Shown here one piece after another: positions 2,964 to 43,951 of a stretch of DNA of 58,341 bases. The stretch covers positions 1 through 58,341 of the forward strand of contig JAWAHS010000009.1 of NCBI GenBank assembly GCA_038889075.1, in the 5' to 3' direction. Position 1 is the stretch's first letter. Each line of letters starts with the position of its first letter. The stretch is from Ignisphaera sp. (GTDB lineage: Archaea > Thermoproteota > Thermoprotei_A > Sulfolobales > Ignisphaeraceae). The notes under the pieces are model-generated. The model worked only from the letters and a program-made list of their open reading frames with translations, ran no database searches and had not been told where the DNA came from. The translations under genes and the position numbers were made by a program.

Positions 2964-3003
2964 AGATCTACCACCAACATGTAGTAATTGGTACAGTGTT
3001 TGG

Positions 3004-3011
3004 TATATAAA
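3004..3011 (-). promoter_or_regulatory. TATA box of the serA operon
   Basis: TTTATATA about 30 nt upstream of the SD. Confidence 0.55.
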
Positions 3012-3225
3012 TCTAGCTGGTAAATACGATCTAAATAAGTTTAATGAGTATATATAGATTGGGTAGATTCCATATAGGTGCAGATTCCACATACCCTACA
3101 TTATAAATGCCACGCATTCACCATGATGACCATCCTAGAATTCGCACCATTAAACGATTAGATACTTATTTAAAGGCTGTACAACATATAGGAAAACAAC
3201 CATGTGGTGAAAGTGGTGTAGTGTT

Positions 3226-4536
3226 GTGGAGTTAGATGGGGGACAGTACTACAGGGATATATATCCATTTACAGATGTTCCACGATTTATAGTCGGTTCT
3301 AGGGAATTGAGTGAAAACGTAGGCAAGGTATATCTTACAGATACTACGCTTAGAGACGGTCAACAGGGCTGGAGAGTATTCACAGTTGAGGAGTGTGAGA
3401 AAATATATGAGCTTCTTGCTGATATAGGTGGCAAAGGTGCTATCGATAGTACCGAGGTATTTCTCTATACTGAAAAGGATAGAGAATCTGCCAAGAAGCT
3501 CCTAAGCTATGGGTATAAATACCCCAAAGTTATAGCATGGATACGAGCCACACTCTCAGATCTCCAGCTAGTTATCGATTCTAAAATAGATGAAGCCGTT
3601 ATACTCATGTCCATTTCGGACTATCATATAAGATACAAGTTCAATGCATCACGCGAAGAAGTCATTAGCAAGTATCTTGAAGTTGCTGAAAGGGCTCTGG
3701 GCCACGGGATAACGATTAGATGCTCTCTGGAAGATATAACTAGGGCAGATATAAATGGTTTGGTAATACCGTTTGTAAAGAAGCTTCTCACACTTGGTGA
3801 AAGGTACAGAGTGCCAATAAAGATAAAATTGCCAGACACACTCGGCCTCGGTCTACCATTTCCAGAGGTTCCGCTACCGAGAGGTATACCAGCAATAGTG
3901 CAGAGTATAAGGAGGGCTACAAATATACCACAGGAATACATAGAATTCCATGGACATAACGACTTTGGGCTAGTTGTAGCAAATCATCTAGCTGCATGGA
4001 TATATGGAGCTGCAGCAGCAAACTGTACGTTACTAGGTATTGGTGAAAGAGCTGGCAACTGTCCCCTCGAGGTCATGGCAATACACTATGCAGGATTAAG
4101 AGGGCAGAATAACATCAATTTAAAGGCTCTGCCAAGGATTGCAGAACTATTTGAACACATGGGCCATAGATTGATAGAGCACTATCCGATTGTCGGTAGG
4201 AATGCATTCAGAACAAAAGCAGGTATTCATGCAGATGGTCTTCTCAAGAATCCCGAGGTCTACCTTCCATTTGATCCAATTAAGGTAGTAGGTATACCCT
4301 ATTCGGTAGCTATAACACCGTACTCTGGCAGATCAGCAGTGCTGTTATGGCTTCGAAACTACCTTGGGCTAAACCATCTAAGTAAGGATGATCCACGGAT
4401 AAATTACATCTATAACGAAATTGTCGAGCTCTATAATAGGAGTGGTAGAACAGAGCCTCTAACGGATGGTGAAATGTTCTTAATTGTGGGCAAGTACTTT
4501 CCTGAGGTGAACAAGGCTAGGAAGGAGAGTAGCTAG
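3226..4536 (+). CDS. Re-citrate synthase-like DRE-TIM metallolyase (LeuA/homocitrate synthase superfamily)
   Basis: TDTTLRDGQQ (not RDGEQ), YRDIYPFTDVP N-terminus, WIRA, SDYHI, EDITRAD, HGHNDFG, GIGERAGN, resembling clostridial Re-citrate synthase as I recall it. Confidence 0.75.
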   Translation: MELDGGQYYRDIYPFTDVPRFIVGSRELSENVGKVYLTDTTLRDGQQGWRVFTVEECEKIYELLADIGGKGAIDSTEVFLYTEKDRESAKKLLSYGYKYPKVIAWIRATLSDLQLVIDSKIDEAVILMSISDYHIRYKFNASREEVISKYLEVAERALGHGITIRCSLEDITRADINGLVIPFVKKLLTLGERYRVPIKIKLPDTLGLGLPFPEVPLPRGIPAIVQSIRRATNIPQEYIEFHGHNDFGLVVANHLAAWIYGAAAANCTLLGIGERAGNCPLEVMAIHYAGLRGQNNINLKALPRIAELFEHMGHRLIEHYPIVGRNAFRTKAGIHADGLLKNPEVYLPFDPIKVVGIPYSVAITPYSGRSAVLLWLRNYLGLNHLSKDDPRINYIYNEIVELYNRSGRTEPLTDGEMFLIVGKYFPEVNKARKESS

Positions 4537-4590
4537 CCAACAATCTATTTTGTCGATTTATGTGGAGTAACCCCATTTTAGGGATAGGAA

Positions 4591-5844
4591 ATGGGTCTTA
4601 TAGACCGGATTGTATCGCAGGTATTGCAAAGGGATGTTACGCCGGGGGAGGTAGCTGTAGTTAGAATCGACTTGGTGTATGCTCAAGACGGCACGGCACC
4701 TCTTGTTATAGATGTTGTTGAAAATGAATTGAAGATGGAAAGCCTTGCTGCAGCGGATAGAGGCTACTTTTTCATAGATCACCTAGCACCAGCACCACAC
4801 ATACCGGCAGCCTCCGTACATAAAAAAATGAGAAACTTTGCTAGAAGATATGGTTTAAAGCTCTTCGATGCTGGGTATGGCATAAGCCATCAAATTGTTG
4901 TTGAAGAGGGTATAGCTAGACCAGGTATGGTTGCTGTAGGAGCCGATAGCCATACTCCAACAATCGGAGCCGTAGGAGTCTACGCAACCGGTGTTGGTAG
5001 CACCGATGCAGCTATTGCAATGGTGTACGGCGAACTCTGGCTAAGAATTCCAGAAACAGTAAAAATAGTTTTGACAGGAACCATCCCTAGGGGAATCTAT
5101 AGCAAGGACATAATACTGAATATAATAGGCGAATTTAAGACAGATGGTATGATTGGTAAAGCTGTAGAATTTCATGGAAATGTACTTACGGATTTATCAA
5201 TAGATTCGCGCATGACCATAACAAATATGTGTACTGAAATGGGTGCAGAATCAGCTATAATCCCAATTGATGGAGTTGCATTAAAATGGCTTAACGAACG
5301 GGGATATACGGTAGCGAGAAGGATTGATACAGAAAATCTTGGGGAGTACATCGATACAGTGTCAATTGATGTATCAAAGTTAGAGCCTACGGTTGCAGTA
5401 CCACCTGATGTAGATAATGTTGTAAGCGTAGATGAAGTTGAAGGTGTAGAAGTGGATCAGGTTTTCATAGGTTCTTGTACAAATGGTAGGTTAGAGGATA
5501 TAGAAGTGGTAGCTAGAATTTTAAAAAATAGGAGGGTTAGCGAGAGAACTAGATGCATCGTTGCTCCAGCCTCTAGAAGGGTATATATGGATGCTCTCAG
5601 AATGGGGTATATAGATATACTTATTCGATCAGGTTGTATAGTAGCTCCCCCAACCTGTGGACCCTGTGTTGGCGCTCACATGGGTATACTGGCAGAGGGT
5701 GAGGTAGCCATTGCTACAACCAATAGGAATTTCACCGGCAGAATGGGGCATAGAGAGAGCAAGGTGTATCTAGCATCGCCAGCTACAGCAGCTGCTTCTG
5801 CGATAGAGGGTAGAATAGCAGATCCAAGAAAATACCTCTCTTAG
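4591..5844 (+). CDS. LeuC/HacA-type (homo)aconitase / isopropylmalate isomerase large subunit
   Basis: QDGT, IDH, GADSHT, GSCTNGR, CGPCVG, TTNRNF; three 4Fe-4S cysteines. Confidence 0.9.
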   Translation: MGLIDRIVSQVLQRDVTPGEVAVVRIDLVYAQDGTAPLVIDVVENELKMESLAAADRGYFFIDHLAPAPHIPAASVHKKMRNFARRYGLKLFDAGYGISHQIVVEEGIARPGMVAVGADSHTPTIGAVGVYATGVGSTDAAIAMVYGELWLRIPETVKIVLTGTIPRGIYSKDIILNIIGEFKTDGMIGKAVEFHGNVLTDLSIDSRMTITNMCTEMGAESAIIPIDGVALKWLNERGYTVARRIDTENLGEYIDTVSIDVSKLEPTVAVPPDVDNVVSVDEVEGVEVDQVFIGSCTNGRLEDIEVVARILKNRRVSERTRCIVAPASRRVYMDALRMGYIDILIRSGCIVAPPTCGPCVGAHMGILAEGEVAIATTNRNFTGRMGHRESKVYLASPATAAASAIEGRIADPRKYLS

Positions 5845-5854
5845 GTGATGGAAT

Positions 5855-6376
5855 ATGATTAAACAGGGTAGATGCTGGAAACTGGGAGATAATATAAGTA
5901 CAGACCATATAATATCGGGTAAGTACAAGTTCGAGGCTATAAATGATATCAATAGAATGCTCGTGCATCTACTTGAGGAGGTTATACCAGAGTTCTATAA
6001 ATTAGTTAGACCAGGGGATATAATAGTTGCAGGGAGAAACTTTGGAAAGGGGTCTAGCAGGGAGCAGGCACCAAGACTTCTAAAGATGGCTGGAGTAGGA
6101 GCAGTTATTGCAAAGAGTTTTGCTCACATTTTCTATAGAAATTCAATAAATATTGGACTACCAGTTATAATAGCTAAAACAATCCCAGATGTAACACAGA
6201 ATGGCGATATCATAGAGATTAATTTGGTAGAGGGGTACGTGAAAAATATTACAAGGAATGTAGTGGAACCGATACACCCATATCCAAAATTCATCGAACA
6301 GCTCCTAAATGCAGGAGGTATAATTGAATACATAAAAAGATATGGGAGACCTCCATGGCGAGAAAGTACAGGGTAG
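5855..6376 (+). CDS. LeuD/HacB-type small subunit
   Basis: [35 protein letters not shown]. Confidence 0.9.
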
Positions 6377-7383
6377 GCGTAGTAAAAGGTGATGGAATAG
6401 GTCCAGAAATAGTTGAGGCTACAATAGATATTCTCAATTCATTAGATCTGAATATCTCCTTCATAGAGCTAGAAGCAGGCTACGGCTACTACCAAAAAAC
6501 CGGCAGATCTATAGAAGAGAACTTCTTCGATAAGGTTAAGGAGCTCGACGCAATACTAAAAGGACCCCTCTATACACCACCCAATGTTAGGGAATTCAAA
6601 AGTGTAAATATTTTAATTAGAAGAGAGCTTGATCTATATGCTAATGTAAGACCCTTTAGAAGTTTTGAAGGAATTTCTCCCAGGAATTTCGATATTGTAC
6701 TTATTAGGGAAAATACTGAGGACGTCTATGTGGGGATTGAGGGAAGGTATAGGGATAAGGCTGTATCTCTAAGGATAATAACTGGTGAGGGTTCTAGAAG
6801 AATAGCAAAATTTGCCTTTAGATACGCTATTCAAAGGGGCTTCAATAGAGTTACAGTCATACACAAGGCAAACATTCTAAAGGAGACTGATGGACTATTT
6901 CGAGAAACCTTTTATATGGTTGCTAAAGAATATCCAAATGTTTTAGCAGATGAAATGATAGTCGATACTGCTGCATATACTATTGTTAGGAACCCTGAAA
7001 GATTACAGATACTCCTTGCACCCAATCTCTATGGCGATATATTAGCGGATCTCCTAGCAGGTATGGTTGGAAGCCTAGGTCTATGTGGTTCAGCTCAGAT
7101 AGGGGAAAATATTGCTGTATTTGAACCAGTACATGGTGTAGCTCTAGATATAGCTGGAAAGGGTATTGCAAATCCTATCGGTGAAATACTATCAGCTAAA
7201 ATGATGCTTGAATACATAGGACAGCGGTATAATGACGGTAAACTCATTAAAGTTTCTGAAAAGATTGAAGAAGCGGTACATATAGTAACTAGTAGGAGGA
7301 TATGGACGCCTGATTTGGGGGGAAGTAATAGAACGAATGATGTTGTAGAAGCAATAAAACGCACTCTTACAGAGTTGCTGTAA
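6355..7383 (+). CDS. Isocitrate/homoisocitrate dehydrogenase family enzyme, IDH-like
   Basis: [32 protein letters not shown] (S-x-N as in IDH), [24 protein letters not shown]. Confidence 0.85.
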
Positions 7384-7416
7384 TAGCTCTATGGCGCTGG
7401 GGGATTCATGGAAATA

Positions 7417-7424
7417 TTTTTAAA
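7417..7424 (+). promoter_or_regulatory. TATA box of thrC-ppcA
   Basis: TTTTTAAA preceded by GAAA, about 27 nt before the GGTGA SD at 7451. Confidence 0.55.
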
Positions 7425-7459
7425 CCGCAGACCTTAAGTAGTAGAGTTGTGGTGAACCT

Positions 7460-8683
7460 CTTGGAAACATAGGTAATTTAAATGAAGCAGTAACTAGAAG
7501 AATATTCAGAGAAGGGGTTCTCCTAAGATGCATACAGTGCGGATACACATACGATCCGGATCCATTCACAATAATATGTCCCAGATGTAGAGGATTACTA
7601 GAGGTGGTAATGCCTAGCATAACAGATTTTGATATGAAAACTGCTAGAATGAGAAGATTTGGTGTATGGAGGTATAGAGAGCTTCTGCCACTAAACGATA
7701 AAGTAACTCCGGTAACACTTAATGAAGGAGGGACGCCATTGATACCGCTGACGAGGGCTATCACTGGATCCTTTAGAGTTTATGTAAAGTTTGAAGGTGG
7801 CAATCCTACAGGGAGTTTTAAGGACAGAGGGATGACAGTAGGAGTAACGATAGCTAAGAGTATTGGTGTTGAAGGGGTTATTGTTGCAAGTACAGGTAAT
7901 ACAGCAGCATCTGCAGCAGCTTATGCAGCTAGAGCGGGTTTAAAGTGCATTGTTGTATTACCTAGGGGAGCTGTAGCCAAGGGTAAGGTAGCTCAGGCAC
8001 TACTACATGGAGCAGAAATTAGAGAAGTTGATGGTGTATTCGATGATGCATTGGAAGACGTATTTACAGAGGTGGTCATGAATGGTGGACGGAAACTGTA
8101 TCCACTAAATTCATATAATCCATGGCGCTTAGAAGGTCAGAAAACAATAGCATTTGAAATCGTTGATGAGCTCGGCTCCGCACCAGACACCGTAATCGTA
8201 CCAGTTGGCAACGCAGGTAATATATCCGCTATTTGGAAGGGATTCAAGGAGCTCTACAGCTATGGCTTAATAAACCGACTTCCTAGAATGATTGGCGTCC
8301 AAGCGACCGGTTCGGCTCCACTTGCAATAACATGGGAATCTAAAGTAGATAAACTCCATGTTATAGAGAATCCACAGACTATAGCTTCAGCTATAAGAAT
8401 TGGTAAACCTGTAAACTGGTTAAAGGCACTAAAGGCTGTTAAGGAGTCCAATGGTGCCTTCATAAAGGTGACAGACGATGAGATTCTGGCTGCAATGAGG
8501 ATGCTAGCTGTATTGGAAGGTATAGGTGTTGAACCGGCTAGTGCTGCATCGTTTGCAGGTTTTATAAAACTAGCTAATAGAGGTCTCATAGATAAAGATG
8601 AAGTTGTTGTTCTGATAGCAACAGGACATGCTCTGAAGGATCCAGATATAATACTCAGTAAAATTATTATAGGGGTGCCGTAG
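7460..8683 (+). CDS. thrC: Threonine synthase with N-terminal zinc ribbon; true start unresolved
   Basis: NPTGSFKDRG, ASTGNT, EGQKT, PVGNAGN. The frame is open from 7445 and encodes LRCIQCGYTY..CPRCRGLLEV upstream of the first NTG (7604). Confidence 0.9.
   Translation, partial: LGNIGNLNEAVTRRIFREGVLLRCIQCGYTYDPDPFTIICPRCRGLLEVVMPSITDFDMKTARMRRFGVWRYRELLPLNDKVTPVTLNEGGTPLIPLTRAITGSFRVYVKFEGGNPTGSFKDRGMTVGVTIAKSIGVEGVIVASTGNTAASAAAYAARAGLKCIVVLPRGAVAKGKVAQALLHGAEIREVDGVFDDALEDVFTEVVMNGGRKLYPLNSYNPWRLEGQKTIAFEIVDELGSAPDTVIVPVGNAGNISAIWKGFKELYSYGLINRLPRMIGVQATGSAPLAITWESKVDKLHVIENPQTIASAIRIGKPVNWLKALKAVKESNGAFIKVTDDEILAAMRMLAVLEGIGVEPASAASFAGFIKLANRGLIDKDEVVVLIATGHALKDPDIILSKIIIGVP
7461..7472 (+). 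other. Candidate uORF M-E-T in front of thrC
   Basis: GGTGA SD (7451-7455), 5 nt, then TTG GAA ACA TAG; the thrC frame is -1 relative to it. Confidence 0.55.
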
Positions 8684-8703
8684 GCTAATATAGAAGAAAA
8701 GAG

Positions 8704-10131
8704 ATGGTGTACAATAGACTCGGAATGGTTAGAGCGATAATGATACCTAAGCTTATGTGTACACAACATCCAGATTCAACAGTAAAGGTAACAGTTCAAG
8801 AGGAGGTTAATGAAGCAATACAGAGCTATACTATGTATGGTTGTGAGGAGATAATGTCGGATTACGAAGGGAAGCTGACACCATATGCACAGCCTAAAGA
8901 TATAATTATGAAAGCAATAGAGTTGGGTATACCAATTGGTGATAGGCTGTACATCACACCAAGGGTACCCAATCCCAAACTCGAGGACTTCGATAGAGTT
9001 GCACTAACCTTAGAAGCGTCTCTCATAGCAAACTACTACTCGTATATACACCTAGGGACTCAAGCAGTAAAGTGGATCATTTTACCAATGGTCGAGACAA
9101 CAGATGTTGTTAGATTGATCCAGAGACTCATTATAAGAAAGTCGAAGATTCTATGTGAGGAAATGAATGTTCCGTGTCCATTAATGCAACTGATACCCTT
9201 AATCGAAGATTCCTCAAGGCTTATACATGTACATGAATATATCACAGGTCTATATAGTATCCTAAAAGAATTCAATGCTGATTTAGACAATCTAAGGGTA
9301 TTCCTAGGTAAGAGTGATAGTGCTACTAAAAGTGGGCACATAGCTTCTGCACTATCTCTAATATATGCACTTCATAGAATTAGTGAAATAGATAAAGAAC
9401 TTGATGTAAACATAAAGCCGATAATAGGAATGGGTTCTCCGCCATTTAGAGGAGGAATTAACAATCCGAGACTTGTAGATATGGAGGTGGAGCAGTATAA
9501 AGGTTTCTCAACAGTAACAATACAATCAGCAGTGAGATACGATGTTACATACACGGATTACCAAAAGGTGCAGTCAGTTCTATTAAATAACATAGATGGA
9601 GTACCAAGAAGAGTTGATCCAGAAATAATCCAACTTATTGAAAATGCTACGCTGAGATATAGAACTCTGGTAGCTAAATACATCGATATAGTGAATAAAT
9701 ACGCTATGACCATTCCAACAACTAGGGATAGAGTATCGTGGAGGGAGTATGGAAGGAGCATCATCTTAGAGGATAAGATGCTCAGCACACCTAGGGCCAT
9801 CATATATACAGCAACATGGTATGTACTCGGGGTACCGCCACTCTTACTAGATGCGGACTTCATTATAGAGGCATACAAGAAGGACGTCATTGATGATATA
9901 GTTAAGTATATACCATATATAAGGAGGGAGTGGGAATATGAGGTACAGTTCTATGTACCTCATGTAGCAGAGAAGAGGCTTGGTAAAGAAATTGTGTCAA
10001 AAATTAATGAGGCAATAGATGTAATGGGGATAAAGCATGAACCGATTGAACTATACAGTAAACTTATAGAATTAAATCCAATAGAACCATACATACTCTC
10101 GCTAGGAAAGATAAGGGGATTCCTAGGCTGA
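8704..10131 (+). CDS. ppcA: Archaeal-type phosphoenolpyruvate carboxylase
   Basis: IPKLMCTQHPD, DYEGK, TPRVPNP, RVFLGKSD, GSPPFRG, TIQSA, PRAI. Confidence 0.92.
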   Translation: MVYNRLGMVRAIMIPKLMCTQHPDSTVKVTVQEEVNEAIQSYTMYGCEEIMSDYEGKLTPYAQPKDIIMKAIELGIPIGDRLYITPRVPNPKLEDFDRVALTLEASLIANYYSYIHLGTQAVKWIILPMVETTDVVRLIQRLIIRKSKILCEEMNVPCPLMQLIPLIEDSSRLIHVHEYITGLYSILKEFNADLDNLRVFLGKSDSATKSGHIASALSLIYALHRISEIDKELDVNIKPIIGMGSPPFRGGINNPRLVDMEVEQYKGFSTVTIQSAVRYDVTYTDYQKVQSVLLNNIDGVPRRVDPEIIQLIENATLRYRTLVAKYIDIVNKYAMTIPTTRDRVSWREYGRSIILEDKMLSTPRAIIYTATWYVLGVPPLLLDADFIIEAYKKDVIDDIVKYIPYIRREWEYEVQFYVPHVAEKRLGKEIVSKINEAIDVMGIKHEPIELYSKLIELNPIEPYILSLGKIRGFLG

Positions 10132-10359
10132 AAAGTGCTAGTAATCCCCTAATTAAGTAAACGAATACAGCTATACTCGTATCGTAGGTGAAAACTATTT
10201 TAATCTTAGAATAGTTTTTATCGATAGGCATTTGTAGCCTTAATCAATGGCTTACATGATGAATAATCCGGTTACTGAGAAATGATGTACCCCTAAAGCT
10301 GAACAGAATGTATGATCATAGCTTAAAAAGACTGTAGATACATAGTTTTACGATCTAAA

Positions 10360-16859: not shown

Positions 16860-17005
16860 AGAGCAATCTGTTCAATAGGGGTTCAGCTCTGATATAGGTT
16901 TATATTGGTTGATGTCATTGCCTCATCTCTTGTTCCCCTGCATTCCAGTCGGGTTCTCATTGGGCTTGGGGGTGTTTAGGGTGATCCCGGGCACCCCACA
17001 TCTTG
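16860..17005 (-). ncRNA. Putative TnpB omegaRNA/reRNA scaffold plus flanking guide (boundaries approximate)
   Basis: GC-rich tract overlapping the tnpB 3' end (GATGTGGGGTGCCCGGGATCACCCTAAAC...GCAGGGGAAC); the position is typical for TnpB guide RNAs. Confidence 0.45.
16881..16914. repeat. Inverted repeat at the tnpB 3' end of the element
   Basis: Reverse complement CATCAACCAATATAAACCTATATCAGAGCTGAAC matches 18330-18364 at 21 of the first 23 nt. Confidence 0.75.
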
Positions 17006-18122
17006 AGTACCTGTAGAATAGGTTTATGCATGCAACCACATCTCTATCTCCTGTGGATCCACATCTACTGCATCCCAGTACTCTACCACTGCTATCCTCT
17101 AACCTGCTTCCACATCTCGGACATGTTGATGAAGTCTTTTCTGGGTTAACATATCTAACTGCTAGTCCTCTCTCCAGTACTTCATATACTATGGTGAACT
17201 GCATCTTTCTGTAGAACCATAGCGATAGCTTTTTGTTGAAATTGCTACCTCTATTCACGTTACTCCTGAGATTGCTTAGGTTTTCAAGAACTATGGTTGA
17301 GCTGTGCTCAACAGCTAGCTCAGCAATATTATCTCCAACTTTGTGAGCATAGTCCCAGGCTATGCTCCTTATTCTCTCACCATGTCTTCTAATCGCTCTC
17401 CTAACACCTCTGATGAACCTCCACGATCTAGAGTACCTTCTCTGAATCCTCTCAATCCATATCCTATGCGTCAACATCCTCCTGAGAGGTGTCTTGAACC
17501 GCTTCAGCTTCAGCAACTTTCCACTAGATGTGAACACAGCTAGTGTAACATTGTCGAAGTTAACATCGATAGCCATTACGGTTCTAGTTCTCCTTGATTT
17601 AACTGTTCTCCTGAAGTATACCGCTACATAGACCTCGTCTTCAACTACCTTCACAGCTATCTCATAGTTACTCCACTCTTTGTATTTCTCTATCCTATCA
17701 ATAGATGTTAGTAGTTTTAATATAACCTCTTCATTATTGTGTATCTTTAGGGTAAGCGTTCTATTCTCTAGATCAAGCTTGTAGTTGTATCTATCTACTC
17801 TAGCTGTTAGTTTTCTGAGAACTGGTTTCTTTCCACTATTCCTCTTACCAGCTTTAACAACTGTTTTAGCGTAGATATATATCTGCTTAACGTGGTGTGC
17901 TCTAAAACCAGATTCCCTAAGCTCTGAGTAGAGCATTCTGTGTAGAGCTTTAATTGAAGGTATTTCGCTTAAACTCCACAACCTGTTTACAGCTAGCTGA
18001 ACAGCATCACGATAGAGCTTCAGAAACTCGAGTAGAGTAAGATAGTCATCACCACCCTTGGGGAGAGCCCTCATCCTAAGAGCCTCAACAAGCTCTCCAC
18101 CCCTCACCGAGTAGCTCACCAC
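16923..18122 (-). CDS. tnpB: RNA-guided endonuclease TnpB
   Basis: RuvC-I AIDVN, RuvC-II VLENL, zinc finger CPRC..CSRC, RuvC-III DRDVVACINL; D-E-D triad present. Confidence 0.93.
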   Translation of the reverse strand: MVSYSVRGGELVEALRMRALPKGGDDYLTLLEFLKLYRDAVQLAVNRLWSLSEIPSIKALHRMLYSELRESGFRAHHVKQIYIYAKTVVKAGKRNSGKKPVLRKLTARVDRYNYKLDLENRTLTLKIHNNEEVILKLLTSIDRIEKYKEWSNYEIAVKVVEDEVYVAVYFRRTVKSRRTRTVMAIDVNFDNVTLAVFTSSGKLLKLKRFKTPLRRMLTHRIWIERIQRRYSRSWRFIRGVRRAIRRHGERIRSIAWDYAHKVGDNIAELAVEHSSTIVLENLSNLRSNVNRGSNFNKKLSLWFYRKMQFTIVYEVLERGLAVRYVNPEKTSSTCPRCGSRLEDSSGRVLGCSRCGSTGDRDVVACINLFYRYSRCGVPGITLNTPKPNENPTGMQGNKR

Positions 18123-22685: not shown

Positions 22686-23108
22686 TTAGACCCAGGTTCT
22701 CAGTACAATCATGGTATATGTACTCACCACTCCTGGGATCGACCTTATCTCATCTATAAATTTATTGATCATATCAACGCCACTTGCCCTAGCTACTACA
22801 ATTATGTCGTACTCCCCCGTAACTTCATACACAAAATCGACACCCGCAATCTTCATGATATTTCTAGATATTTCAGGTACAGGTACAGGCGGCTGGGATT
22901 TAACGAGGATTACAGCCTTTACCTCGTTTCCAAGGTCATACTCTATGGTCATCTTCTTTATAATACCCATCTTTACTAACTTAGATATACGTTTTCTAAC
23001 GGCAGACTCGCTTATTCCGAGTTCTTTTGCCAATCGTGAATAGGGTGTTCTAGCATTCTCTTTAAGAAGCTTCAACAACTTTATGTCAATATCGTCAAGT
23101 GTGGGCAT
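22686..23108 (-). CDS. lysM: Lrp/AsnC family regulator LysM
   Basis: LDDIDIKLL..NARTPYSRLAKELGISESAVRKRI HTH, VYEVTGEYD RAM domain; lysYZM gene order as in Sulfolobus. Confidence 0.85.
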   Translation of the reverse strand: MPTLDDIDIKLLKLLKENARTPYSRLAKELGISESAVRKRISKLVKMGIIKKMTIEYDLGNEVKAVILVKSQPPVPVPEISRNIMKIAGVDFVYEVTGEYDIIVVARASGVDMINKFIDEIRSIPGVVSTYTMIVLRTWV

Positions 23109-23112
23109 TCTC

Positions 23113-23916
23113 TCATCCTCTAATAATACTAGTACCTCTACCTTTTAGTGCATTTGTTACGGGAGCATCGATATTGCCTTGAGCTATGATAATCTTTCCT
23201 ACACCCCCTTCTAAAGCTTTTTCAGCCATGATAACCTTTCTATTCATTCCAGGGCCAATTTTCTCTACAATTTTATCAATTTCACTGGTTCTGATTTCTT
23301 TAACAATATTGTTGTCTATTATAACGCCATCAACATCTGTCAATACAACTAATTCCTCAGCTTTTAAAGCCGATGCAATTGTATATGCAGCTTGATCGCC
23401 ATCCACATTTAGTAGTACTCCTTCATTATCTATAGCTATAGGTGCTACAACAACTATATAGTTTCTATCAAGTAGTATATTGATTAATTCAGTCTCAACG
23501 CTAATTACTCTACCTGTGTACCCACCATCTATTACTCTCCTTCTACCCCGCTCATCTACTATTACAATACGTTTCTTTCTCTCGGCTAATAAAGTAGGGC
23601 CGTCAGCTCCGGTTATACCTACAGCTCTACATCCAAGAGCTCTAAATTTGGATACTATCAACTTATTTATCTTACCGGCCATAACCATTACATAGACCTC
23701 GAGTTCCCTCTCATCAGTATATCTACTTCTAATACCCTCAGGAGACATGACGAATCTCGGTTCTATTCCAAGCCTTTTACTAACTTCACTAACAATATCT
23801 CCACCACCATGTATTAGCACTATCCTTTTTTCTCTTGAGAGCTCAGCAAGGTCTTTTACAACACTGTCAATGCTATTGCTTAATACCCGTCCACCAACCT
23901 TAACGACTATAACCAT
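23113..23916 (-). CDS. lysZ: [LysW]-aminoadipate/glutamate kinase (LysZ/ArgB)
   Basis: VVKVGG, HGGG, SRYTD, GGYTG, NVDGD, GMNRK. Confidence 0.92.
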   Translation of the reverse strand: MVIVVKVGGRVLSNSIDSVVKDLAELSREKRIVLIHGGGDIVSEVSKRLGIEPRFVMSPEGIRSRYTDERELEVYVMVMAGKINKLIVSKFRALGCRAVGITGADGPTLLAERKKRIVIVDERGRRRVIDGGYTGRVISVETELINILLDRNYIVVVAPIAIDNEGVLLNVDGDQAAYTIASALKAEELVVLTDVDGVIIDNNIVKEIRTSEIDKIVEKIGPGMNRKVIMAEKALEGGVGKIIIAQGNIDAPVTNALKGRGTSIIRG

Positions 23917-23928
23917 GGCTTCTGGCCT

Positions 23929-24987
23929 CTATATGGGTTTTGGAGGTACCAATGTAAGTCCGGCTGTCTCTTCGAATCCTTTTGCAATGTTAAAAGCCTG
24001 TATAGCTTGTCCAGCAGCTCCCTTCATTAGATTATCTATTGCTGCGAAAGATGTAATTCTATTCAATCTTCTTTCGATAGCAAAGCCTATATCGGCAAAG
24101 TTGCTTCCAGTTACATACTTAGGGTCAGGATAACCAGGTGGTACCCTATATACTATTCGTATAAATGGTTCACCCTTGTATGTGTTTACGTAGTATTTTA
24201 GCAACTCTGCATCATCTAAGCTATTTATGAGCCAGGCATGTGATGAGGCTAGGGCACCCCTTATACTTCCTACAGCATGTGGAATCAGCGATACCTTGAT
24301 TTCATGACCAGCTACAGTACTGAGTTCTTGTTCAACCTCAGCAGCATGTCTATGTCCTTCAGCATCATATGGTCTTATACACCCTTCTCTCTCAGGATGG
24401 TGATCGGAGATGGAAGGCTTTGAACCAGCTTCACTACTACCTACCTTTACATCCACTATTATTCTGTCTGTGTAGATTATTCTATTCTTAACTAGGGGTA
24501 TCAGTGATAGTATAGCGGCTGTAGCATTGCATCCTGGTACAGCTATAAGCTTGGCGCCTGTTAATTCGCTTCTATGGAGTTCAGGTAAACCATAGACAGC
24601 CTTTTTAATCAAGTCTTGATATGGATGTTCATAGCCATACCAAGTCTTGTACGCTTCGGGGCTCTTCAACCTGAAGTCAGCACTCAGATCTACTATAGTC
24701 AATCCGGCTTCATATAGCTTCGGAACGTAGTTTAATGATACACCATGTGGAAGTGATAGAAAAACAGCGTCGCATTTCTTTAAGATGGCATCTAGATTGA
24801 AGTCGGAGAATTTAAGATTTCTATATACACCCCGTAGATTGAAATGAACATAGTGTAAAGGTTTGCCCACGTATTCCCTAGATGTTGCTATAGCCACTTC
24901 TACATAGGGATGTATAGCTAATAGCCTGAGTAGCTCACCTCCAGTATACCCAGATGCACCCGCTATACATACGCTTATTTTACCCAT
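23929..24987 (-). CDS. lysY: [LysW]-aminoadipyl/glutamyl-phosphate reductase (LysY/ArgC)
   Basis: GASGYTGGE, DLSADFRL, PGCNAT, GSSEAG, HRHAAE, IDNLMKGAAGQA. Confidence 0.93.
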   Translation of the reverse strand: MGKISVCIAGASGYTGGELLRLLAIHPYVEVAIATSREYVGKPLHYVHFNLRGVYRNLKFSDFNLDAILKKCDAVFLSLPHGVSLNYVPKLYEAGLTIVDLSADFRLKSPEAYKTWYGYEHPYQDLIKKAVYGLPELHRSELTGAKLIAVPGCNATAAILSLIPLVKNRIIYTDRIIVDVKVGSSEAGSKPSISDHHPEREGCIRPYDAEGHRHAAEVEQELSTVAGHEIKVSLIPHAVGSIRGALASSHAWLINSLDDAELLKYYVNTYKGEPFIRIVYRVPPGYPDPKYVTGSNFADIGFAIERRLNRITSFAAIDNLMKGAAGQAIQAFNIAKGFEETAGLTLVPPKPI

Positions 24988-25211
24988 TCAATATTCACCT
25001 ACTTACCTAGGTAACAGTAGGTGCAAACTTAACTAATACTCCGCATATCCTTTGGTGCGGTTTCAAATAATCAGTGTATGTAGATGGTACTGAATTCGGC
25101 TAGAACTATACATCAGAGAGTACATAGCATTTACGGTATTATATATATCCCCAGTATAGTACCAGACTTTTTATCAAAACTCGAATCCCTATAAATAATG
25201 GTGAGCTATAA

Positions 25212-25382
25212 ATGGTAGTAGTCAAATGCCCTGTCTGTGGTGGTGAAGTACTGTTACCAGATGATGTTATAGCAGGGGAGATAGTGGAACATGAATGTGG
25301 GGTAACACTTGAGGTTGTGGTTGATAACGATACAGTAAAGGTAAAGCCTTTTGAAGGAATTAGTGAAGATTGGGGAGAATAG
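25212..25382 (+). CDS. lysW: Amino-group carrier protein LysW
   Basis: 56 aa MVVVKCPVCGG...EHECG...EDWGE*; zinc ribbon and invariant C-terminal EDWGE; missed by the ORF track. Confidence 0.97.
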   Translation: MVVVKCPVCGGEVLLPDDVIAGEIVEHECGVTLEVVVDNDTVKVKPFEGISEDWGE

Positions 25383-25396
25383 AGGAGGTGAGGTTT

Positions 25397-26260
25397 ATTG
25401 CCAAAGTTGGTATAGCATATGAGGTTCTCAGGTGGGAAGAAAAAGCACTAGCCGATGTAGCAAAAGAGCTTAACCTCGATATAGATCTCCTTCATATACA
25501 CTCTCTCCAGCTTTTAGTTGGATACAATGGACTATCCACATCATCTAGCATGGATGTTGATATAGTTTTACAGAGAGCTATAAGTCACACAACAGCATTG
25601 AATGTTACTCTAGCTCTTGAGTCGATGGGTCTAAGAGTTATTAATACGTCGAATGCTACAGCAATGGCTATGAATAAACTCTGGACAGCATCAATATTGG
25701 CAAGGGCTGGTATAAAAATTCCTAGGACGGCTATAGCATTTAGTGAGGAATCGTGCTATAAATCAGCACAACTCCTAGGGTATCCTATTGTTGTAAAGCC
25801 TATCGATGGTAGTTGGGGGAGATTGATAGCTATGGCTAGAGATGATGAAGAACTCAGGGCAATACTTGAACACAGGATATATATACCAAATCCTACAATG
25901 AAGGTTCACATGGTGCAGGAGTATGTAAAGAAGCCAGGAAGGGATATACGAATCTTTGTAGTTGGTGATGAAACCCCTGCAGCAATCTATAGGATCAGTA
26001 ATCACTGGATAACAAATACAGCAAGAGGAGGAAAAGCAGTAGCAGCAAAAATAGATGCTGAGCTTAGTGAACTGGCATTAAAAACCGCTAGGTTAATTGG
26101 AATAGAGGTAGCGGGTATAGATGTATTTGAGGACCCTGAAAGGGGATATGTAGTAAATGAAATAAATGCCGTACCGGAATTTAAGAATACGGTAGCTGCA
26201 ACGGGTATTCAGCTCCATAGAAATATAATGGAGTATATAAAGAATCAGGTGAGAAGGTAA
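25397..26260 (+). CDS. lysX: ATP-grasp LysW ligase (LysX/ArgX, RimK family); start uncertain (ATT 25397, GTG 25388, TTG 25370 or via uORF)
   Basis: KPIDGSWGR, QEYV, RDIR, IYR..HWITNTARGG, EINAVPEFKN. Confidence 0.92.
   Translation: MAKVGIAYEVLRWEEKALADVAKELNLDIDLLHIHSLQLLVGYNGLSTSSSMDVDIVLQRAISHTTALNVTLALESMGLRVINTSNATAMAMNKLWTASILARAGIKIPRTAIAFSEESCYKSAQLLGYPIVVKPIDGSWGRLIAMARDDEELRAILEHRIYIPNPTMKVHMVQEYVKKPGRDIRIFVVGDETPAAIYRISNHWITNTARGGKAVAAKIDAELSELALKTARLIGIEVAGIDVFEDPERGYVVNEINAVPEFKNTVAATGIQLHRNIMEYIKNQVRR
25398..25415 (+). other. Candidate uORF M-P-K-L-V overlapping the lysX start
   Basis: GGAGGTGAGG SD then TTG CCA AAG TTG GTA TAG; the lysX frame is -1. Confidence 0.4.
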
Positions 26261-26261
26261 A

Positions 26262-27419
26262 TTGCTAAAATACCTTATGTTTTATGAAGATAGAGGTATT
26301 GAGATAAGCTATGCGGAGGGGCAATACGTATGGGATTCAAATGGCAAAAAATACCTAGATATGCACACAGGTCACGGTGTAGCATTTTTAGGTCATAGAC
26401 ATCCACATATAGTAAAATCGATTGTGGAACAGTTAAACAGAGTTTCAATACTATCAACAGCATTCAGACATAGAGTAAGAGATGAAATGCTTGACGTACT
26501 CTCTAAAATTGTGCCAAATAAATTCGAATATGTGTACCTATTGAATAGTGGAAGCGAGGCTGTCGACTTTTCACTTAAGGTTGCTAGAAAAGTTACGGGT
26601 AAAAAGAAGATTATCTATTTCACAAATTCATTCCATGGAAGAACATTTGGAGCTTTATCCGTAACCGCTAACTCCAAATATAGAAAAGGGTTTGAACCGC
26701 TACTTCCAGAAACATATCAATTAAGATACAACGATCTATCTGAGGTAGATAAAAATATAGATGATAACACAGCTGCGGTGATAGTTGAGCTTATACAGGG
26801 TGAAGGTGGAGTAAACATAGCTACGAAAGAGTTCGTATCAATACTTAGAGAAAAAAGTGTTGAAAAGGGAGCTATTCTAGTAGTAGATGAGATACAGACC
26901 GGATTTGGAAGAACTGGTACAATATGGCTGTTCGAACAGTATGGTATTGTACCAGATATTCTACTAGCTGGAAAATCTATGGGTGGAGGCTTTCCAGTCA
27001 GTGCAGCATTTATGTCAAGCGATATTGCCTCTAAATTAGAAGCTGGTTGCCATGGTTCAACATACGGTGGAAATCCAATTGCATGTGCTGCTATTAAAGC
27101 ATCAACAGAGGTTTTGATAGGTGAAAACGTACCTCAGCAGGCGTGGATAAAAGGATCTAAATTGATTAGTAGGTTGAGAGAGGATCTGGAGAAGTATAGA
27201 ATTGTAAAGGAGGTTAGAGGTGCAGGGCTCATGATAGGTATTGATCTTAGGGTAGAGCCTACAAAAATTATAAAATGTCTTCAGGATGAAGGCCTTTTAG
27301 CATTAAAGGCAGGTCTAACTGTACTACGGCTTCTACCTCCCTATAATATTAGTGATGAAGATATCGAATTTACAGTGAATAGAATTGGAGGATGCATCTC
27401 TAAACAATTTAGCAATTGA
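26262..27419 (+). CDS. lysJ: [LysW]-semialdehyde transaminase (LysJ/ArgD), class III
   Basis: NSGSEA, FHGRT, IQGEGG, DEIQTGFGRTG, GKSMGGG, HGSTYGGNP. Confidence 0.92.
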   Translation: MLKYLMFYEDRGIEISYAEGQYVWDSNGKKYLDMHTGHGVAFLGHRHPHIVKSIVEQLNRVSILSTAFRHRVRDEMLDVLSKIVPNKFEYVYLLNSGSEAVDFSLKVARKVTGKKKIIYFTNSFHGRTFGALSVTANSKYRKGFEPLLPETYQLRYNDLSEVDKNIDDNTAAVIVELIQGEGGVNIATKEFVSILREKSVEKGAILVVDEIQTGFGRTGTIWLFEQYGIVPDILLAGKSMGGGFPVSAAFMSSDIASKLEAGCHGSTYGGNPIACAAIKASTEVLIGENVPQQAWIKGSKLISRLREDLEKYRIVKEVRGAGLMIGIDLRVEPTKIIKCLQDEGLLALKAGLTVLRLLPPYNISDEDIEFTVNRIGGCISKQFSN

Positions 27420-28485
27420 TATGCTTATCGATCTACTTAAAGCATATAGCCCCACAGGAGAAGAGAATAGAGCAGTAACCGTACTAAAGGAATATGCTAC
27501 AGATCTCGGATATGAAGATATATACATAGATGGAGTCGGGAATCTCATAGCCAGTTATGGAGATGGAGATATATCCATAGCCTTTATAGGTCATATAGAT
27601 ACCATCCCAGGCGAACTACCAGTAGTATTCGATGGCGAGAGGATTATTGGAAGAGGAGCAGTAGATGCAAAGGGTCCTTTAACTGCATTATTTATAGGTG
27701 TATCTCAGGCACGGGCACATATAGGTAAAAATATAAAGGTGTATTCTATAGCTGTCGTTGGTGAAGAAGGGGATAGTAAAGGTGCTAGAAACTTAATCAG
27801 TAAAGGATTTCGGGTTGGAGGTTCCATTATTGCAGAACCTAGCAATAACACAGGCATTGTAGTCGGATACAGAGGTAGCATTAAGCTAAGAATACAGTGT
27901 CGTGGTAGTGGTGGACATACATCATCACCAACTCTAGAGAGTTCGGCATGCATTTCACTATTAAAAATTTGGAACGCTATAAATGAAGAGATGCATGGAT
28001 TTAAATACGATGAAAACTCCTCAGCACTTCTCTATATTCACTGTGGAGAGCATGCCAGATACAATGTCTACCCCAAATATGGTGAGATGCTTATAGATAT
28101 TAGAATCTCGGTAAATGGATCTACAGAATCCATACTAAAATTTATCAATACTATAGTAAATGGGTCCAAATCTTGTACACATAGTATTATAGATAGTACT
28201 CCACCTATTAAGGTCTCTCCAAACAACCCCATTGTAAGGGCTTTAACAAGGGCAATATTAAAACGAAACGAAAAACCCAAAATACTCTACAAACTTGGCA
28301 CAAGTGATATGAATATACTATACCCCTATATAACACATAATATGGCAGCCTATGGACCTGGGAGATCAGAGTTGGCACATAGTGATAGAGAGGAGATAAC
28401 TGTCAGCGAACTTATTCATGGAATTGATATATATAGAGAAACGGTTACAGAATTTGTCAATATCGTGGAAAAGAAATTATACTAG
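27385..28485 (+). CDS. lysK: [LysW]-lysine/ornithine hydrolase (LysK/ArgE), M20 family
   Basis: GHIDT, GRGAVDAKGP, GEE, AEPS, GTSDMN, YGPG..AH. Confidence 0.92.
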   Translation: MEDASLNNLAIDMLIDLLKAYSPTGEENRAVTVLKEYATDLGYEDIYIDGVGNLIASYGDGDISIAFIGHIDTIPGELPVVFDGERIIGRGAVDAKGPLTALFIGVSQARAHIGKNIKVYSIAVVGEEGDSKGARNLISKGFRVGGSIIAEPSNNTGIVVGYRGSIKLRIQCRGSGGHTSSPTLESSACISLLKIWNAINEEMHGFKYDENSSALLYIHCGEHARYNVYPKYGEMLIDIRISVNGSTESILKFINTIVNGSKSCTHSIIDSTPPIKVSPNNPIVRALTRAILKRNEKPKILYKLGTSDMNILYPYITHNMAAYGPGRSELAHSDREEITVSELIHGIDIYRETVTEFVNIVEKKLY

Positions 28486-41512: not shown

Positions 41513-43462
41513 ATGGATAATACAGGCATCTACGTTATTGATGTATCTAGGAGTAGCTATGCCATTGTAGAACCTCTTCCAATTGATAGGGTTATAGTTG
41601 ATGACAGTTTTTGGAGACCAAGACTGGAGAAATTAGTAAAGATTACACTACCTCTACAGTTTTTGAAGATTCAGGAAACGGGTAGGTTAGAAAATTTTAG
41701 AATGGCTTCGGGAAGGGTAAAAGGGGAATTTAAAGGTCTATGGTTTAATGATTCAGATGTATATAAGTGGATTGAAGCATCAGCGTATGCACTAGCATAT
41801 CGCTGGAGTGAGGAACTATATAAAATGGTGAATACGGCTATAGATGAAATTATTTCAGCACAACAGCCAGATGGCTATATAAATACATACATTACAGTAA
41901 ATGGTCTTAAACGATGGGTTGATCTGGCTTGGAGCCATGAGCTCTACTGTGCAGGGCATCTAATCCAAGCTGCAATTGCTGTAAGAAGAAGCCTTAAGAA
42001 AAATGATCTGTATGTGGCATCTCTAAAGTTTGCGGACTTGATAAGCGATACATTTGGCTGGGAGGAGGGAAAACTAAAGACCTCAGATGGTCATCCAGAA
42101 ATAGAGATGGCGTTGGTAGAACTCTATAGAGAATGTAACAGAGGGAAGTATCTAGATCTTGCAGAGTTTTTCATAGATATACGGGGTAGGGGATATGTAA
42201 CCAAGACTCTAACATTAAGGCAGTTCTTTTTACCTTCACCTGAATACCTAGTTGATCACAAGCCTATAAGAGAATTGGATGATATTGCTGGGGGACATGC
42301 AGTAAGGGCATTGTACTATATGGCAGGAGTCGCAGATGTTTATATAGAGAAGGGAGATAGCAAGTTGTGGTCTGCTTTAGAAAGTTTATGGAGGAAGGTC
42401 ACTAGTAGGAAAATGTACATTACATATGGATTTGGTTCGAGATATGAAGGAGAAGCATTTGGCGAAGATTATGAATTACCAAATGAAAGAGCTTATAGTG
42501 AGACGTGCGCATCGGTGGCAGGGGCCATGTGGGCGTGGAGAATGTTTTTAGCATCGGGTGATCCGAAATATGTAGAGGTACTGGAGTCTATTCTATACAA
42601 TTCAGCATTAGCGGGCATATCCTTAGATGGAACCAGGTACTTCTATGTAAATCCGCTTGCAGATTACTATGGAAAACACCAAAGGATGCCATGGTTTGAA
42701 TGTGCATGTTGTCCACCGAACATTGCGAGGCTCTTAGCATATCTTCCGAGCATGATATACTCTTTTTCTAAGATCGACAAAGGTATAATGGTGAATTTAT
42801 TTATTGGGAGTAGAGCTGTATTTGAGGTGAATGGAAATAGAATTGTAATCACCATGGATACTATGTACCCATGGTACGGTAAGGTATTCATTAGAATGGA
42901 GCCGGAGAGGGTTGATGAAATACCTGTCATGATTAGAATACCCTCATGGGTAGAGGAACATGAAATTCTAGTTAATGGAAAGGAGTTCAGAGGAGAGCCT
43001 GGTAGGTATATAAAACTTGTTAAATCATGGGATAGAGGCGATAAGATAGTTATTGAATTCAAAATGAGACCCAGGTTCATACAATCACATCCATATGTGG
43101 AAGCTAACTATGGTAGGGTAGCTATAAAGAGAGGACCCATAGTCTACTGTATAGAGGGTATAGATAATAGGGAATTCGATGTAAGAGATTTAATCATAGA
43201 TCCCTCTACTGCTAACCTCAATGAGGTTTTTAGAGAAGATGTGCTTAATGGTGTTGTATTGGTAGAGGGTGAGGGATACGTTAATGAAGATATGTATCAT
43301 GGTGATAAACTATACTATGAACTGGATGTAGAGAGTGTTCCAAAGGCTAAAAAGGTTAAGTTTATAGCGATACCATACTATGCCTGGAACAATAGAGGGG
43401 CAACCCAGATGGCTGTATGGATAAGATCTCGCATCAATGTGCTAGGCAGGATAGGGGATTGA
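41513..43462 (+). CDS. Glycoside hydrolase family 127 (beta-L-arabinofuranosidase-like)
   Basis: DSDVYKWIEA, HELYCAGH, GHPEIE, GHAVR, EAF, YSETCA, CACCPPN, IPYYAWNNRG. Confidence 0.92.
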   Translation: MDNTGIYVIDVSRSSYAIVEPLPIDRVIVDDSFWRPRLEKLVKITLPLQFLKIQETGRLENFRMASGRVKGEFKGLWFNDSDVYKWIEASAYALAYRWSEELYKMVNTAIDEIISAQQPDGYINTYITVNGLKRWVDLAWSHELYCAGHLIQAAIAVRRSLKKNDLYVASLKFADLISDTFGWEEGKLKTSDGHPEIEMALVELYRECNRGKYLDLAEFFIDIRGRGYVTKTLTLRQFFLPSPEYLVDHKPIRELDDIAGGHAVRALYYMAGVADVYIEKGDSKLWSALESLWRKVTSRKMYITYGFGSRYEGEAFGEDYELPNERAYSETCASVAGAMWAWRMFLASGDPKYVEVLESILYNSALAGISLDGTRYFYVNPLADYYGKHQRMPWFECACCPPNIARLLAYLPSMIYSFSKIDKGIMVNLFIGSRAVFEVNGNRIVITMDTMYPWYGKVFIRMEPERVDEIPVMIRIPSWVEEHEILVNGKEFRGEPGRYIKLVKSWDRGDKIVIEFKMRPRFIQSHPYVEANYGRVAIKRGPIVYCIEGIDNREFDVRDLIIDPSTANLNEVFREDVLNGVVLVEGEGYVNEDMYHGDKLYYELDVESVPKAKKVKFIAIPYYAWNNRGATQMAVWIRSRINVLGRIGD

Positions 43463-43463
43463 A

Positions 43464-43937: not shown

Positions 43938-43951
43938 TTTGAGAGTATAGG

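Follow-up and report, generated by a model that had tools for sequence, protein, structure and literature searches.

We analyzed a stretch of 58,341 nucleotides from Ignisphaera sp. (contig JAWAHS010000009.1 of assembly GCA_038889075.1, positions 1 to 58,341; hereafter the window) with a focus on the gene cluster at positions 3226-10131, which probably encodes an oxidative branch leading from phosphoenolpyruvate (PEP) to 2-oxoglutarate. By translation of open reading frames (ORFs) and comparison with Pfam and NCBIfam, this region holds six co-directional genes on the + strand, with short gaps or overlaps between them. They are listed here with NCBIfam scores in bits, each followed by the cut-off of the model (aa, amino acids).

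3226-4536, + strand: synthase, here called SYN9; 436 aa, GTG start; HMGL-like domain PF00682 (1.2e-42) and HCS_D2 domain PF22617 (5.4e-09)
4591-5844, + strand: large subunit of a LeuC/HacA-type [4Fe-4S] hydro-lyase, proposed aconitase; 417 aa; Aconitase family (9.8e-98)
5855-6376, + strand: LeuD/HacB-type small subunit; 173 aa; loop G22-K-Y-K-F-E27; TIGR02087 (178.7 against 108.95)
6355-7383, + strand: Iso_dh-family dehydrogenase, proposed isocitrate dehydrogenase; 342 aa; Iso_dh (3.4e-89); S83-V84-N85
7604-8683, + strand: threonine synthase gene thrC; TIGR00260 (294.8 against 167.1)
8704-10131, + strand: archaeal-type PEP carboxylase gene ppcA, proposed oxaloacetate source; 475 aa; PF14010 (1.9e-113, 380 bits) and TIGR02751 (268.5 against 146.05)

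The small-subunit and dehydrogenase genes overlap by 22 bases. An initial annotation had located the synthase, LeuCD, dehydrogenase and ppcA genes exactly at these places and on this strand, and the motifs that it quoted (RDGQQ, the YRDIYPF.DVP type, EDITRAD, GKYKFE, and S-x-N) are all present in the translations. It had put ppcA just downstream of the first four genes; ppcA does follow them, but thrC, which it had left out, lies in between.

None of the models for LeuA, CimA, NifV, and LysS comes near its cut-off on SYN9. The best score was 200.5 against 517 bits, the CimA model gave 83.6 against 450, and the homocitrate synthase (HCS) models TIGR02146 and TIGR02660 gave 176 against 413.55 and 178.5 against 462.9. 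No LeuA_dimer domain was found in SYN9 by Pfam, no Re-citrate synthase model was among the NCBIfam matches, and the nearest solved structure, Sulfolobus HCS 6KTQ, matched at 129 bits only. The expectation that automated annotation would assign leucine or homocitrate names agrees with public databases, in which the nearest named relatives, Ignisphaera proteins of 77-79% identity, are called 2-isopropylmalate synthase or similar, and another name among close relatives is "homocitrate synthase/isopropylmalate synthase family". A search of 1.84 billion representatives returned only 147 clusters at E ≤ 1e-30. Several family members are named "citrate (Re)-synthase" by the Joint Genome Institute (JGI), and some "2-phosphinomethylmalic acid synthase". 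Two members, P0270 from Oceanidesulfovibrio (Desulfovibrio group) and P0291 from Ignicoccus islandicus, are publicly named "histone-lysine N-methyltransferase", clearly a misannotation, which conceals the family.

Species-representative genomes were scanned for SYN9 relatives, and the best 80 of at least 577 were retained, 8 archaeal and 72 bacterial, with Clostridium kluyveri outside the 80. The 72 bacterial members among these best 80 are 39-44% identical to SYN9 over the full length and come from Clostridia, Desulfovibrio, Syntrophorhabdus, Christensenellales, and others. In a tree of 131 rows (quick IQ-TREE search, LG+G4), a Re-citrate-synthase family of 108 rows is split from LeuA, LysS, NifV, CimA, and the host's own paralogs by a branch of 1.63 with a support of 100 in the Shimodaira-Hasegawa-like approximate likelihood ratio test (SH-aLRT). 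Row L107 was disregarded, because its ORF had been extracted across an in-frame stop and its branch of 5.2 is an artefact. SYN9 lies within an archaeal clade of 24 rows, and the base of the bacterial clade is formed by Ignicoccus, Fervidicoccaceae, and Nitrososphaerales proteins. SYN9 is 46% identical to I. islandicus P0291 and 43% identical (183/427) to P0320 of Acetivibrio thermocellus; for the A. thermocellus candidate, the accessible text of PMC6115520 reports 61% identity to the C. kluyveri enzyme, which is biochemically verified, and a position beside an aconitase. By tree position and model scores, SYN9 is a member of the Re-citrate-synthase family and not a LeuA, HCS, or CimA, which bears out the features noted in the initial annotation. 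A divergent branch of the synthase family was also seen in genus g52 (locus L120, genome G145), where the gene is standalone and the protein has no YRDI extension and departs from the usual motifs (GWGRAS, HGHGDY); all g52 genomes have a Si-citrate synthase.

SYN9 carries YYRDIYPFTDVP at aa 8-19, RDGQQ at aa 43-47, and EDITRAD at aa 169-175, whereas the host's own LeuA and CimA paralogs instead read RDGEQ/RDGTQ and AEDATRSD. The A. thermocellus homolog has YRDIF in common with the SYN9 N-terminus. Judged by these comparisons, the quoted motifs are marks of the clade and not chance matches.

For a comparison of individual residues, SYN9 was aligned to Thermus HCS and to 100 family members (72 bacterial and 28 archaeal). 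W105, R107, and Q47 are invariant (72/72 bacterial and 28/28 archaeal members). The residues invariant in bacteria, a set defined in this analysis, are W105, R107, Q46-Q47, R165, and H167; SYN9 keeps W105, R107, Q46, Q47, and R165 and has Ser, not His, at position 167. Trp105 occupies the position of Thermus HCS His72, a ligand of the C5-carboxylate, and isopropylmalate synthase (IPMS) has Leu there. Thermus HCS Arg133 and Ser135, which bind the same distal carboxylate, align with Arg165 and Ser167 of SYN9, where IPMS has Glu/Phe. At the Arg133 position, every bacterial member has Arg and 26 of the 28 archaeal ones have Arg or Lys, and the host's LeuA and CimA have Glu or no equivalent there. 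The Arg thus suggests that the acceptor is a dicarboxylic 2-oxoacid.

This acceptor need not be oxaloacetate itself. A member of the same family could use an oxaloacetate-like compound, for example of the phosphinopyruvate type as in 2-phosphinomethylmalate synthases, and form an unknown product, and both the JGI name given to some members and the difference between the archaeal and bacterial clades at position 167 would fit. We regard this as very improbable for SYN9, given that the window has no phosphonate genes nearby and that the association of the module with amino-acid biosynthesis genes is widely conserved.

The cluster dehydrogenase has the S-x-N motif of isocitrate dehydrogenase (IDH), as initially claimed. 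In E. coli IDH, Ser-x-Asn binds the gamma-carboxylate of isocitrate. The motif is common to the NAD-IDH 6LKY, all bacterial IDHs encoded beside the synthase, and 18 of 19 archaeal cluster dehydrogenases; Thermus homoisocitrate dehydrogenase (HICDH) reads G-A-I-R at this place, and the host's own LeuB has neither motif. We propose that the cluster dehydrogenase is an isocitrate dehydrogenase and possibly also a homoisocitrate dehydrogenase. Three Iso_dh genes were found in the genome: that of the cluster, leuB, and a type II NADP-IDH gene (contig C1:296044-297351; 579.6 against 335 bits). Because the type II enzyme is encoded elsewhere, the cluster dehydrogenase need not be the sole IDH.

Gene order links the cluster to bacterial systems. 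An aconitase-family and/or Iso_dh gene lies directly downstream of the synthase gene at 30 of the 72 bacterial loci. Fused ORFs of 638-643 aa beside bacterial synthases pass the aconitate hydratase model NF005558 in 4/4 cases tested (913-988 against 612 bits), a neighbor at locus L041 passes the type II IDH model, and a Syntrophorhabdales locus (L035) has the synthase, a two-subunit LeuC/LeuD, and then an IDH passing NF005425 (518 against 490). By gene content and order, this bacterial layout of synthase, hydro-lyase, and IDH is the architecture of Clostridium acetobutylicum CA_C0970/0971/0972, whose purified products are, in the accessible text of PMC4669385, Re-citrate synthase, aconitase, and NADH-IDH.

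Archaeal synteny was compared across 20 loci from 18 genomes and 8 further archaeal loci. The order synthase, LeuC, LeuD, dehydrogenase was found at 11 of the 20 loci and 3 of the further 8. Three loci of the same genus repeat the full layout, with thrC and ppcA as well as serA and aminotransferase genes in divergent orientation. thrC keeps its position in the same-genus loci L104, L105, and L107 and in Thermogladius (L109), and ppcA adjoins the cluster in 3/3 same-genus loci fetched. One complete genome of the genus (G054) has two synthase copies (loci L105 and L106; 76% and 70% identity), one in the cluster and one alone, and is the only sampled member of the genus in which a type II IDH was not found. 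The small-subunit loop GKYKFE (aa 22-27) belongs to the form G(K/R)YK(F/Y), which is kept in synthase-linked archaeal small subunits at 19 of the 20 loci shown; the host's own paralog has AKHLKY at this place, and fused bacterial aconitases have (K/R)(L/I)LP(Y/F)RSN.

The host genome (1.95 Mb, 99.6% complete) was searched for other routes to citrate. It has no match to PF00285, which excludes Si-citrate synthase and ATP-citrate-lyase-type enzymes. No AcnA-type aconitase was found in the whole genome, and its aconitase-family large subunits are two, both of the LeuC type. Contig C3 encodes a separate CimA (535.6 against 450) and LeuA-type synthase (507 against 484.75) together with leuB and ilvBCD; the top solved match of this LeuB is Sulfolobus isopropylmalate dehydrogenase (IPMDH; 362.6 bits). 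A second leuCD pair is located on contig C1, beside a TnpB-type gene (L011:3014-4459, - strand). As the genome has a genuine IDH and no conventional source of isocitrate, citrate is presumably made in this organism, and its gene content argues that the cluster encodes the only plausible enzymes for doing so.

These separate cimA, LeuA-type, leuB, and leuCD genes also bear on the simplest reading of the public names, an ordinary leucine (leuABCD) or citramalate/isoleucine cluster. Although relatives of SYN9 are called 2-isopropylmalate synthase and the cluster hydro-lyase passes the LeuC and LeuD subfamily models, the LeuA and CimA models stay far under their cut-offs, LeuA_dimer is absent, and SYN9 has Arg/Ser and Trp where IPMS has Glu/Phe and Leu, respectively. 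We consider such a cluster extremely improbable.

Distribution of the synthase was surveyed in 251 genomes of the class, in which it was defined by E ≤ 1e-70 and showed 46-87% identity. Of these genomes, 61 have the synthase and 115 Si-citrate synthase; 13 have both enzymes and 88 have neither, and Si-citrate synthase was absent from 136 of the 251. The two enzymes mostly replace each other, at the level of whole families: the Sulfolobaceae-like family f5 has the synthase in 0/41 and Si-citrate synthase in 41/41 genomes, and families f1, f7, f8, f14, f15, and f16 have the opposite pattern. A type II IDH was present in 33 genomes, 32 of which have Si-citrate synthase or the synthase, the exception being an 86%-complete assembly; among the 17 type II IDH genomes that lack Si-citrate synthase, 16 have the synthase. 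In the Fervidicoccales-like genome G187 (C33:78765-81302), the synthase gene is directly preceded by a type II NADP-IDH gene in the same orientation. In the complete genome of Thermogladius, the module and thrC are present, the synthase is the sole LeuA-family enzyme, and LysX was not found.

In Ignicoccus, identified in the survey by an exact protein look-up, the synthase is present in 4/4 genomes and Si-citrate synthase in 0/4. Ignicoccus alone among archaea is cited, from labelling work, for Re-specific synthesis of citrate in the accessible text of PMC12016533, and the genome paper reports, in the text available, that no reductive carboxylation leading to 2-oxoglutarate was detected (PMC2614490). 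In the searchable literature, no assignment of an archaeal gene to Re-citrate synthase was found, and the available text of the Ignicoccus genome paper mentions citrate once and a gene for its synthesis never.

Together, the observed gene identities, family membership, genome content, synteny, and distribution support the half-tricarboxylic acid (TCA) cycle originally suggested as a route to 2-oxoglutarate. In this probable branch, PpcA would carboxylate PEP to oxaloacetate, and SYN9, as a member of the oxygen-sensitive Re-citrate synthase family, would combine oxaloacetate and acetyl-coenzyme A into citrate. The two-subunit LeuC/LeuD-type iron-sulfur hydro-lyase would convert citrate to isocitrate, from which the S-x-N dehydrogenase, with or beside the type II NADP-IDH, would form 2-oxoglutarate. 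2-Oxoglutarate would give glutamate and, through a single LysW/LysX system, ornithine and arginine. The host, an anaerobic Ignisphaera-like archaeon, has no Si-citrate synthase and no AcnA/AcnB. We infer all substrates and the stereochemistry of the cluster enzymes.

Several results weigh against this assignment. The synthase tree was built without a verified Re-citrate synthase; its anchor consists of names, the identity figure of the paper cited above, and operon architecture, and the link of SYN9 to verified enzymes is indirect because their sequences are absent from the tree. The co-occurrence counts come from related genomes and are descriptive only; they overstate the case because such genomes are not independent. 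For the dehydrogenase, the top solved relative is a homoisocitrate dehydrogenase (Thermus HICDH 3ASJ, 262 bits, followed by NAD-IDH with 244 and Sulfolobus IPMDH with 241), the IDH models stay under their cut-offs (NF006673, 322.2 against 509; NF006529, 303 against 510), and no NCBIfam model reaches its cut-off, the HICDH model AksF2 scoring 354.2 against 540. No glutamate dehydrogenase (PF00208) was found in the genome, and glutamate synthase gave only partial matches of 38 and 35 bits, from which no conclusion was drawn; no enzyme was assigned to the amination of 2-oxoglutarate to glutamate.

The hydro-lyase likewise belongs on this side. Its large subunit passes subfamily models (NF001614, 541.1 against 385; TIGR02086, 532.5 against 410.15), and the LEU2, HacA_Meth, and HacB equivalogs are under cut-off for the cluster subunits, but the aconitate hydratase model NF005558 gives only 346.5 against 612. 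In its tree, the large subunit falls among LeuC-type proteins of archaea, where LeuA-linked ones are interspersed. A kinship of the large subunit to aconitases was rejected, since the tree sets it apart from 12 fused bacterial aconitases and from AcnA. By phylogeny, the hydro-lyase is of the LeuC/HacA type and not of the aconitase type. The suggestion that a LeuCD-like enzyme serves as the aconitase therefore draws its support from context: the unusual loop on which the initial annotation remarked is there, but the protein does not group with known aconitases. We propose that this LeuCD-type enzyme acts as an aconitase and possibly also as a homoaconitase.

The remaining contrary points all concern lysine. 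Position 167 is His in 72/72 bacterial members and in three archaeal sequences that branch with them, and it is Ser, Ala, or Thr in 25 of the 28 archaeal members, as in homocitrate synthases. At 3 of the 20 archaeal loci (L108, L113, and L117), the module is fused to lysY-lysZ-(lysW)-lysX-lysJ-lysK, and LysX is present in 54 of the 61 synthase-positive genomes. Pyrofollis japonicus (G153; loci L116 and L134) keeps the module despite having a Si-citrate synthase beside a 912-aa AcnA. Pyrofollis has two LysX-type ligases, and its module dehydrogenase reads S-I-T, not S-x-N; from this context, the Pyrofollis module probably serves lysine. The synthase is the sole LeuA-family enzyme in Pyrofollis, as it is in genomes G080 and G007.

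A lys gene set is also present in the window, 15 kb downstream of the cluster.

22686-28485, divergent: lysM, lysZ, and lysY (- strand) and lysW, lysX, lysJ, and lysK (+ strand), assigned by NCBIfam scores (score/cut-off: LysM 207/180, LysZ 369/194, ArgC/LysY 417.6/233.6, LysW 75.2/75, LysX 330.9/275.6, LysK 288.3/288)

This set, which includes the gene of the regulator LysM, is likely a sink for glutamate and possibly one for 2-aminoadipate too. The genome encodes one LysX-type ligase (two other RimK-like genes are MptN-like) and an ornithine carbamoyltransferase, so arginine must pass through LysW. No lysA was found in the genome, and DapA-like matches were under cut-off. Lysine, if made, needs a homocitrate synthase, and since only SYN9 has the required residues, it is the sole HCS candidate.

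The cluster might accordingly make lysine only, with SYN9 as a Re-citrate synthase family member recruited for homocitrate synthesis and joined by a homoaconitase and a homoisocitrate dehydrogenase; 2-oxoglutarate would then come from peptide-derived glutamate, and no citrate would be formed. The lysW-cluster fusions, the lys set in the window, the missing lysA and sub-cut-off DapA-like matches, the host's LeuA and CimA without the distal-carboxylate Arg, the correspondence of Ser167 with Thermus HCS Ser135, and the top solved relatives (6KTQ and 3ASJ) are all in its favor, as is Pyrofollis, where the module is the sole LeuA-family set beside Si-citrate synthase, AcnA, and two LysX-type ligases and where the Asn of S-x-N is lost. 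It would, however, leave the genus-conserved type II IDH without a source of isocitrate, and it does not fit Thermogladius, which retains the module although LysX was not found there. S-x-N is kept in nearly all archaeal cluster dehydrogenases, the lysW-fused ones included, SYN9 has Trp at the HCS His72 position, both HCS models score far under cut-off, the adjacency of ppcA points to oxaloacetate as the substrate, and the synthase occurs in none of 41 genomes of the Sulfolobaceae, which have a classical HCS as well as LysX. We therefore consider a role in lysine synthesis alone unlikely.

The PEP-to-2-oxoglutarate branch may instead be combined with lysine synthesis. The initial annotation had raised a second cycle to 2-oxoadipate, and this idea gains weight from the lysW fusions in relatives, the missing lysA, and the lack of another enzyme with the distal-carboxylate Arg. 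The same three enzymes could, as a real though somewhat less than even possibility, run a second turn from 2-oxoglutarate to 2-oxoadipate, in the roles of homocitrate synthase, homoaconitase, and HICDH. Glutamate and arginine as well as lysine would then be derived from PEP through one module feeding one LysW/LysX system, a tentative view to which we give similar credence. It is supported by the lineages with no LeuA-family set besides the module, by the lysW fusions, and by the absence here of a diaminopimelate pathway or another HCS-capable enzyme. The replacement of His167 by Ser, Ala, or Thr in archaea would open the pocket for a longer substrate.

Amino-acid biosynthesis also dominates the remaining window, which forms an island of such genes. 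Divergent from the cluster are genes for a SerA-like protein and a class-V aminotransferase, and the island further holds a peptide ABC transporter, asd, aspartate kinase, hom, thrB, a liv-type transporter, argG, argH, carA, and carB. A TnpB-type (IS200/IS605) RNA-guided nuclease gene (16923-18122, - strand) separates the peptide transporter from the asd operon. At 41513-45487 (+ strand), a 649-aa protein resembles aceric acid hydrolase below threshold (459.9 against 950), and the two ORFs after it, of 157 and 511 aa, have no NCBIfam match. Rfam gave no match anywhere in the window. Contigs of the metatranscriptomic library X15 are >99% identical to the window and span 3333-9728, bridging synthase/LeuC, LeuC/LeuD, LeuD/dehydrogenase, the space before thrC, and thrC/ppcA. 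This cover is compatible with expression of the cluster but is no proof of it; DNA carry-over is possible, and the contigs do not prove one transcript. X15 left 3000-3240 and 9748-10200 uncovered, X23 gave one short piece, and X24 gave nothing, and no conclusion was drawn from any of these.

The enzyme family and the pathway are known already from bacteria, and physiological work infers them in Ignicoccus; no description of the archaeal cluster, its two-subunit hydro-lyase, or its LysW link was found in the searchable literature. Many anaerobic hyperthermophilic Thermoproteota have no recognizable citrate synthase or aconitase, and models leave their glutamate synthesis open or assume uptake. 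The assignment offers a gene-level candidate for the Re-specific citrate synthesis of Ignicoccus, would amend the mistaken "isopropylmalate synthase" label carried by at least 61 of the class genomes, and points to a two-subunit LeuCD-type enzyme working as an aconitase. If the second turn is real, one promiscuous module would serve both a TCA branch and lysine, a living example of the proposed patchwork origin of leucine, lysine, and TCA enzymes. With few genes and thermostable enzymes, the question lends itself to direct testing.

Among known systems, the cluster resembles the C. acetobutylicum CA_C0970-0972 and C. kluyveri type (EC 2.3.3.3, K05942) in its synthase family, with 39-44% full-length identity and the N-terminal YRDI(F/Y) extension, and in the gene order synthase, hydro-lyase, dehydrogenase, as far as described in PMC4669385. 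An anaerobic host without, or beside, a Si-citrate synthase is a further likeness found in the accessible text of PMC4669385 and PMC6115520. The Ignisphaera hydro-lyase is of the two-subunit archaeal LeuC/LeuD type, whereas the bacterial one is a fused 640-aa aconitase; Ignisphaera also has Ser167 against the bacterial His, attached thrC and ppcA genes, and a second, type II IDH elsewhere. Ignicoccus hospitalis, with its Re-specific citrate synthesis (Jahn et al. 2007, as cited in the text available of PMC12016533 and PMC2614490), is likewise an anaerobe and a member of the host's taxonomic order; all 4 Ignicoccus genomes lack Si-citrate synthase and carry a synthase homolog (46% identity). 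In contrast to SYN9, the Ignicoccus synthase gene is standalone (L118), keeps His167, and branches at the base of the bacterial clade, in a genome with three other LeuA-family synthases.

The HCS, homoaconitase, and HICDH of the LysW aminoadipate pathway (Thermus, Sulfolobus, and Thermococcus) belong to the same three enzyme superfamilies, with the distal-carboxylate Arg and Ser kept, and the module is fused to lysYZ(W)XJK in relatives. The Thermus and Pyrococcus enzymes use both isocitrate and homoisocitrate. SYN9 and the solved Sulfolobus HCS are not orthologs (129 bits); SYN9 has no counterpart in the 41 Sulfolobaceae genomes and carries Trp for the HCS His, and the dehydrogenase has S-x-N against the Arg85 region of Thermus HICDH. 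In methanogens, AksA/AksDE/AksF elongate dicarboxylic 2-oxoacids repeatedly by one carbon for coenzyme B. SYN9 belongs to another synthase clade, its proposed start is oxaloacetate and not 2-oxoglutarate, and the locus has no coenzyme B context. The NCBIfam models AksF2 and HacB2 are among the best matches of the cluster, though sub-threshold, and the Aks system, with one synthase, a two-subunit hydro-lyase, and one dehydrogenase, provides the model for a module that would run two turns.

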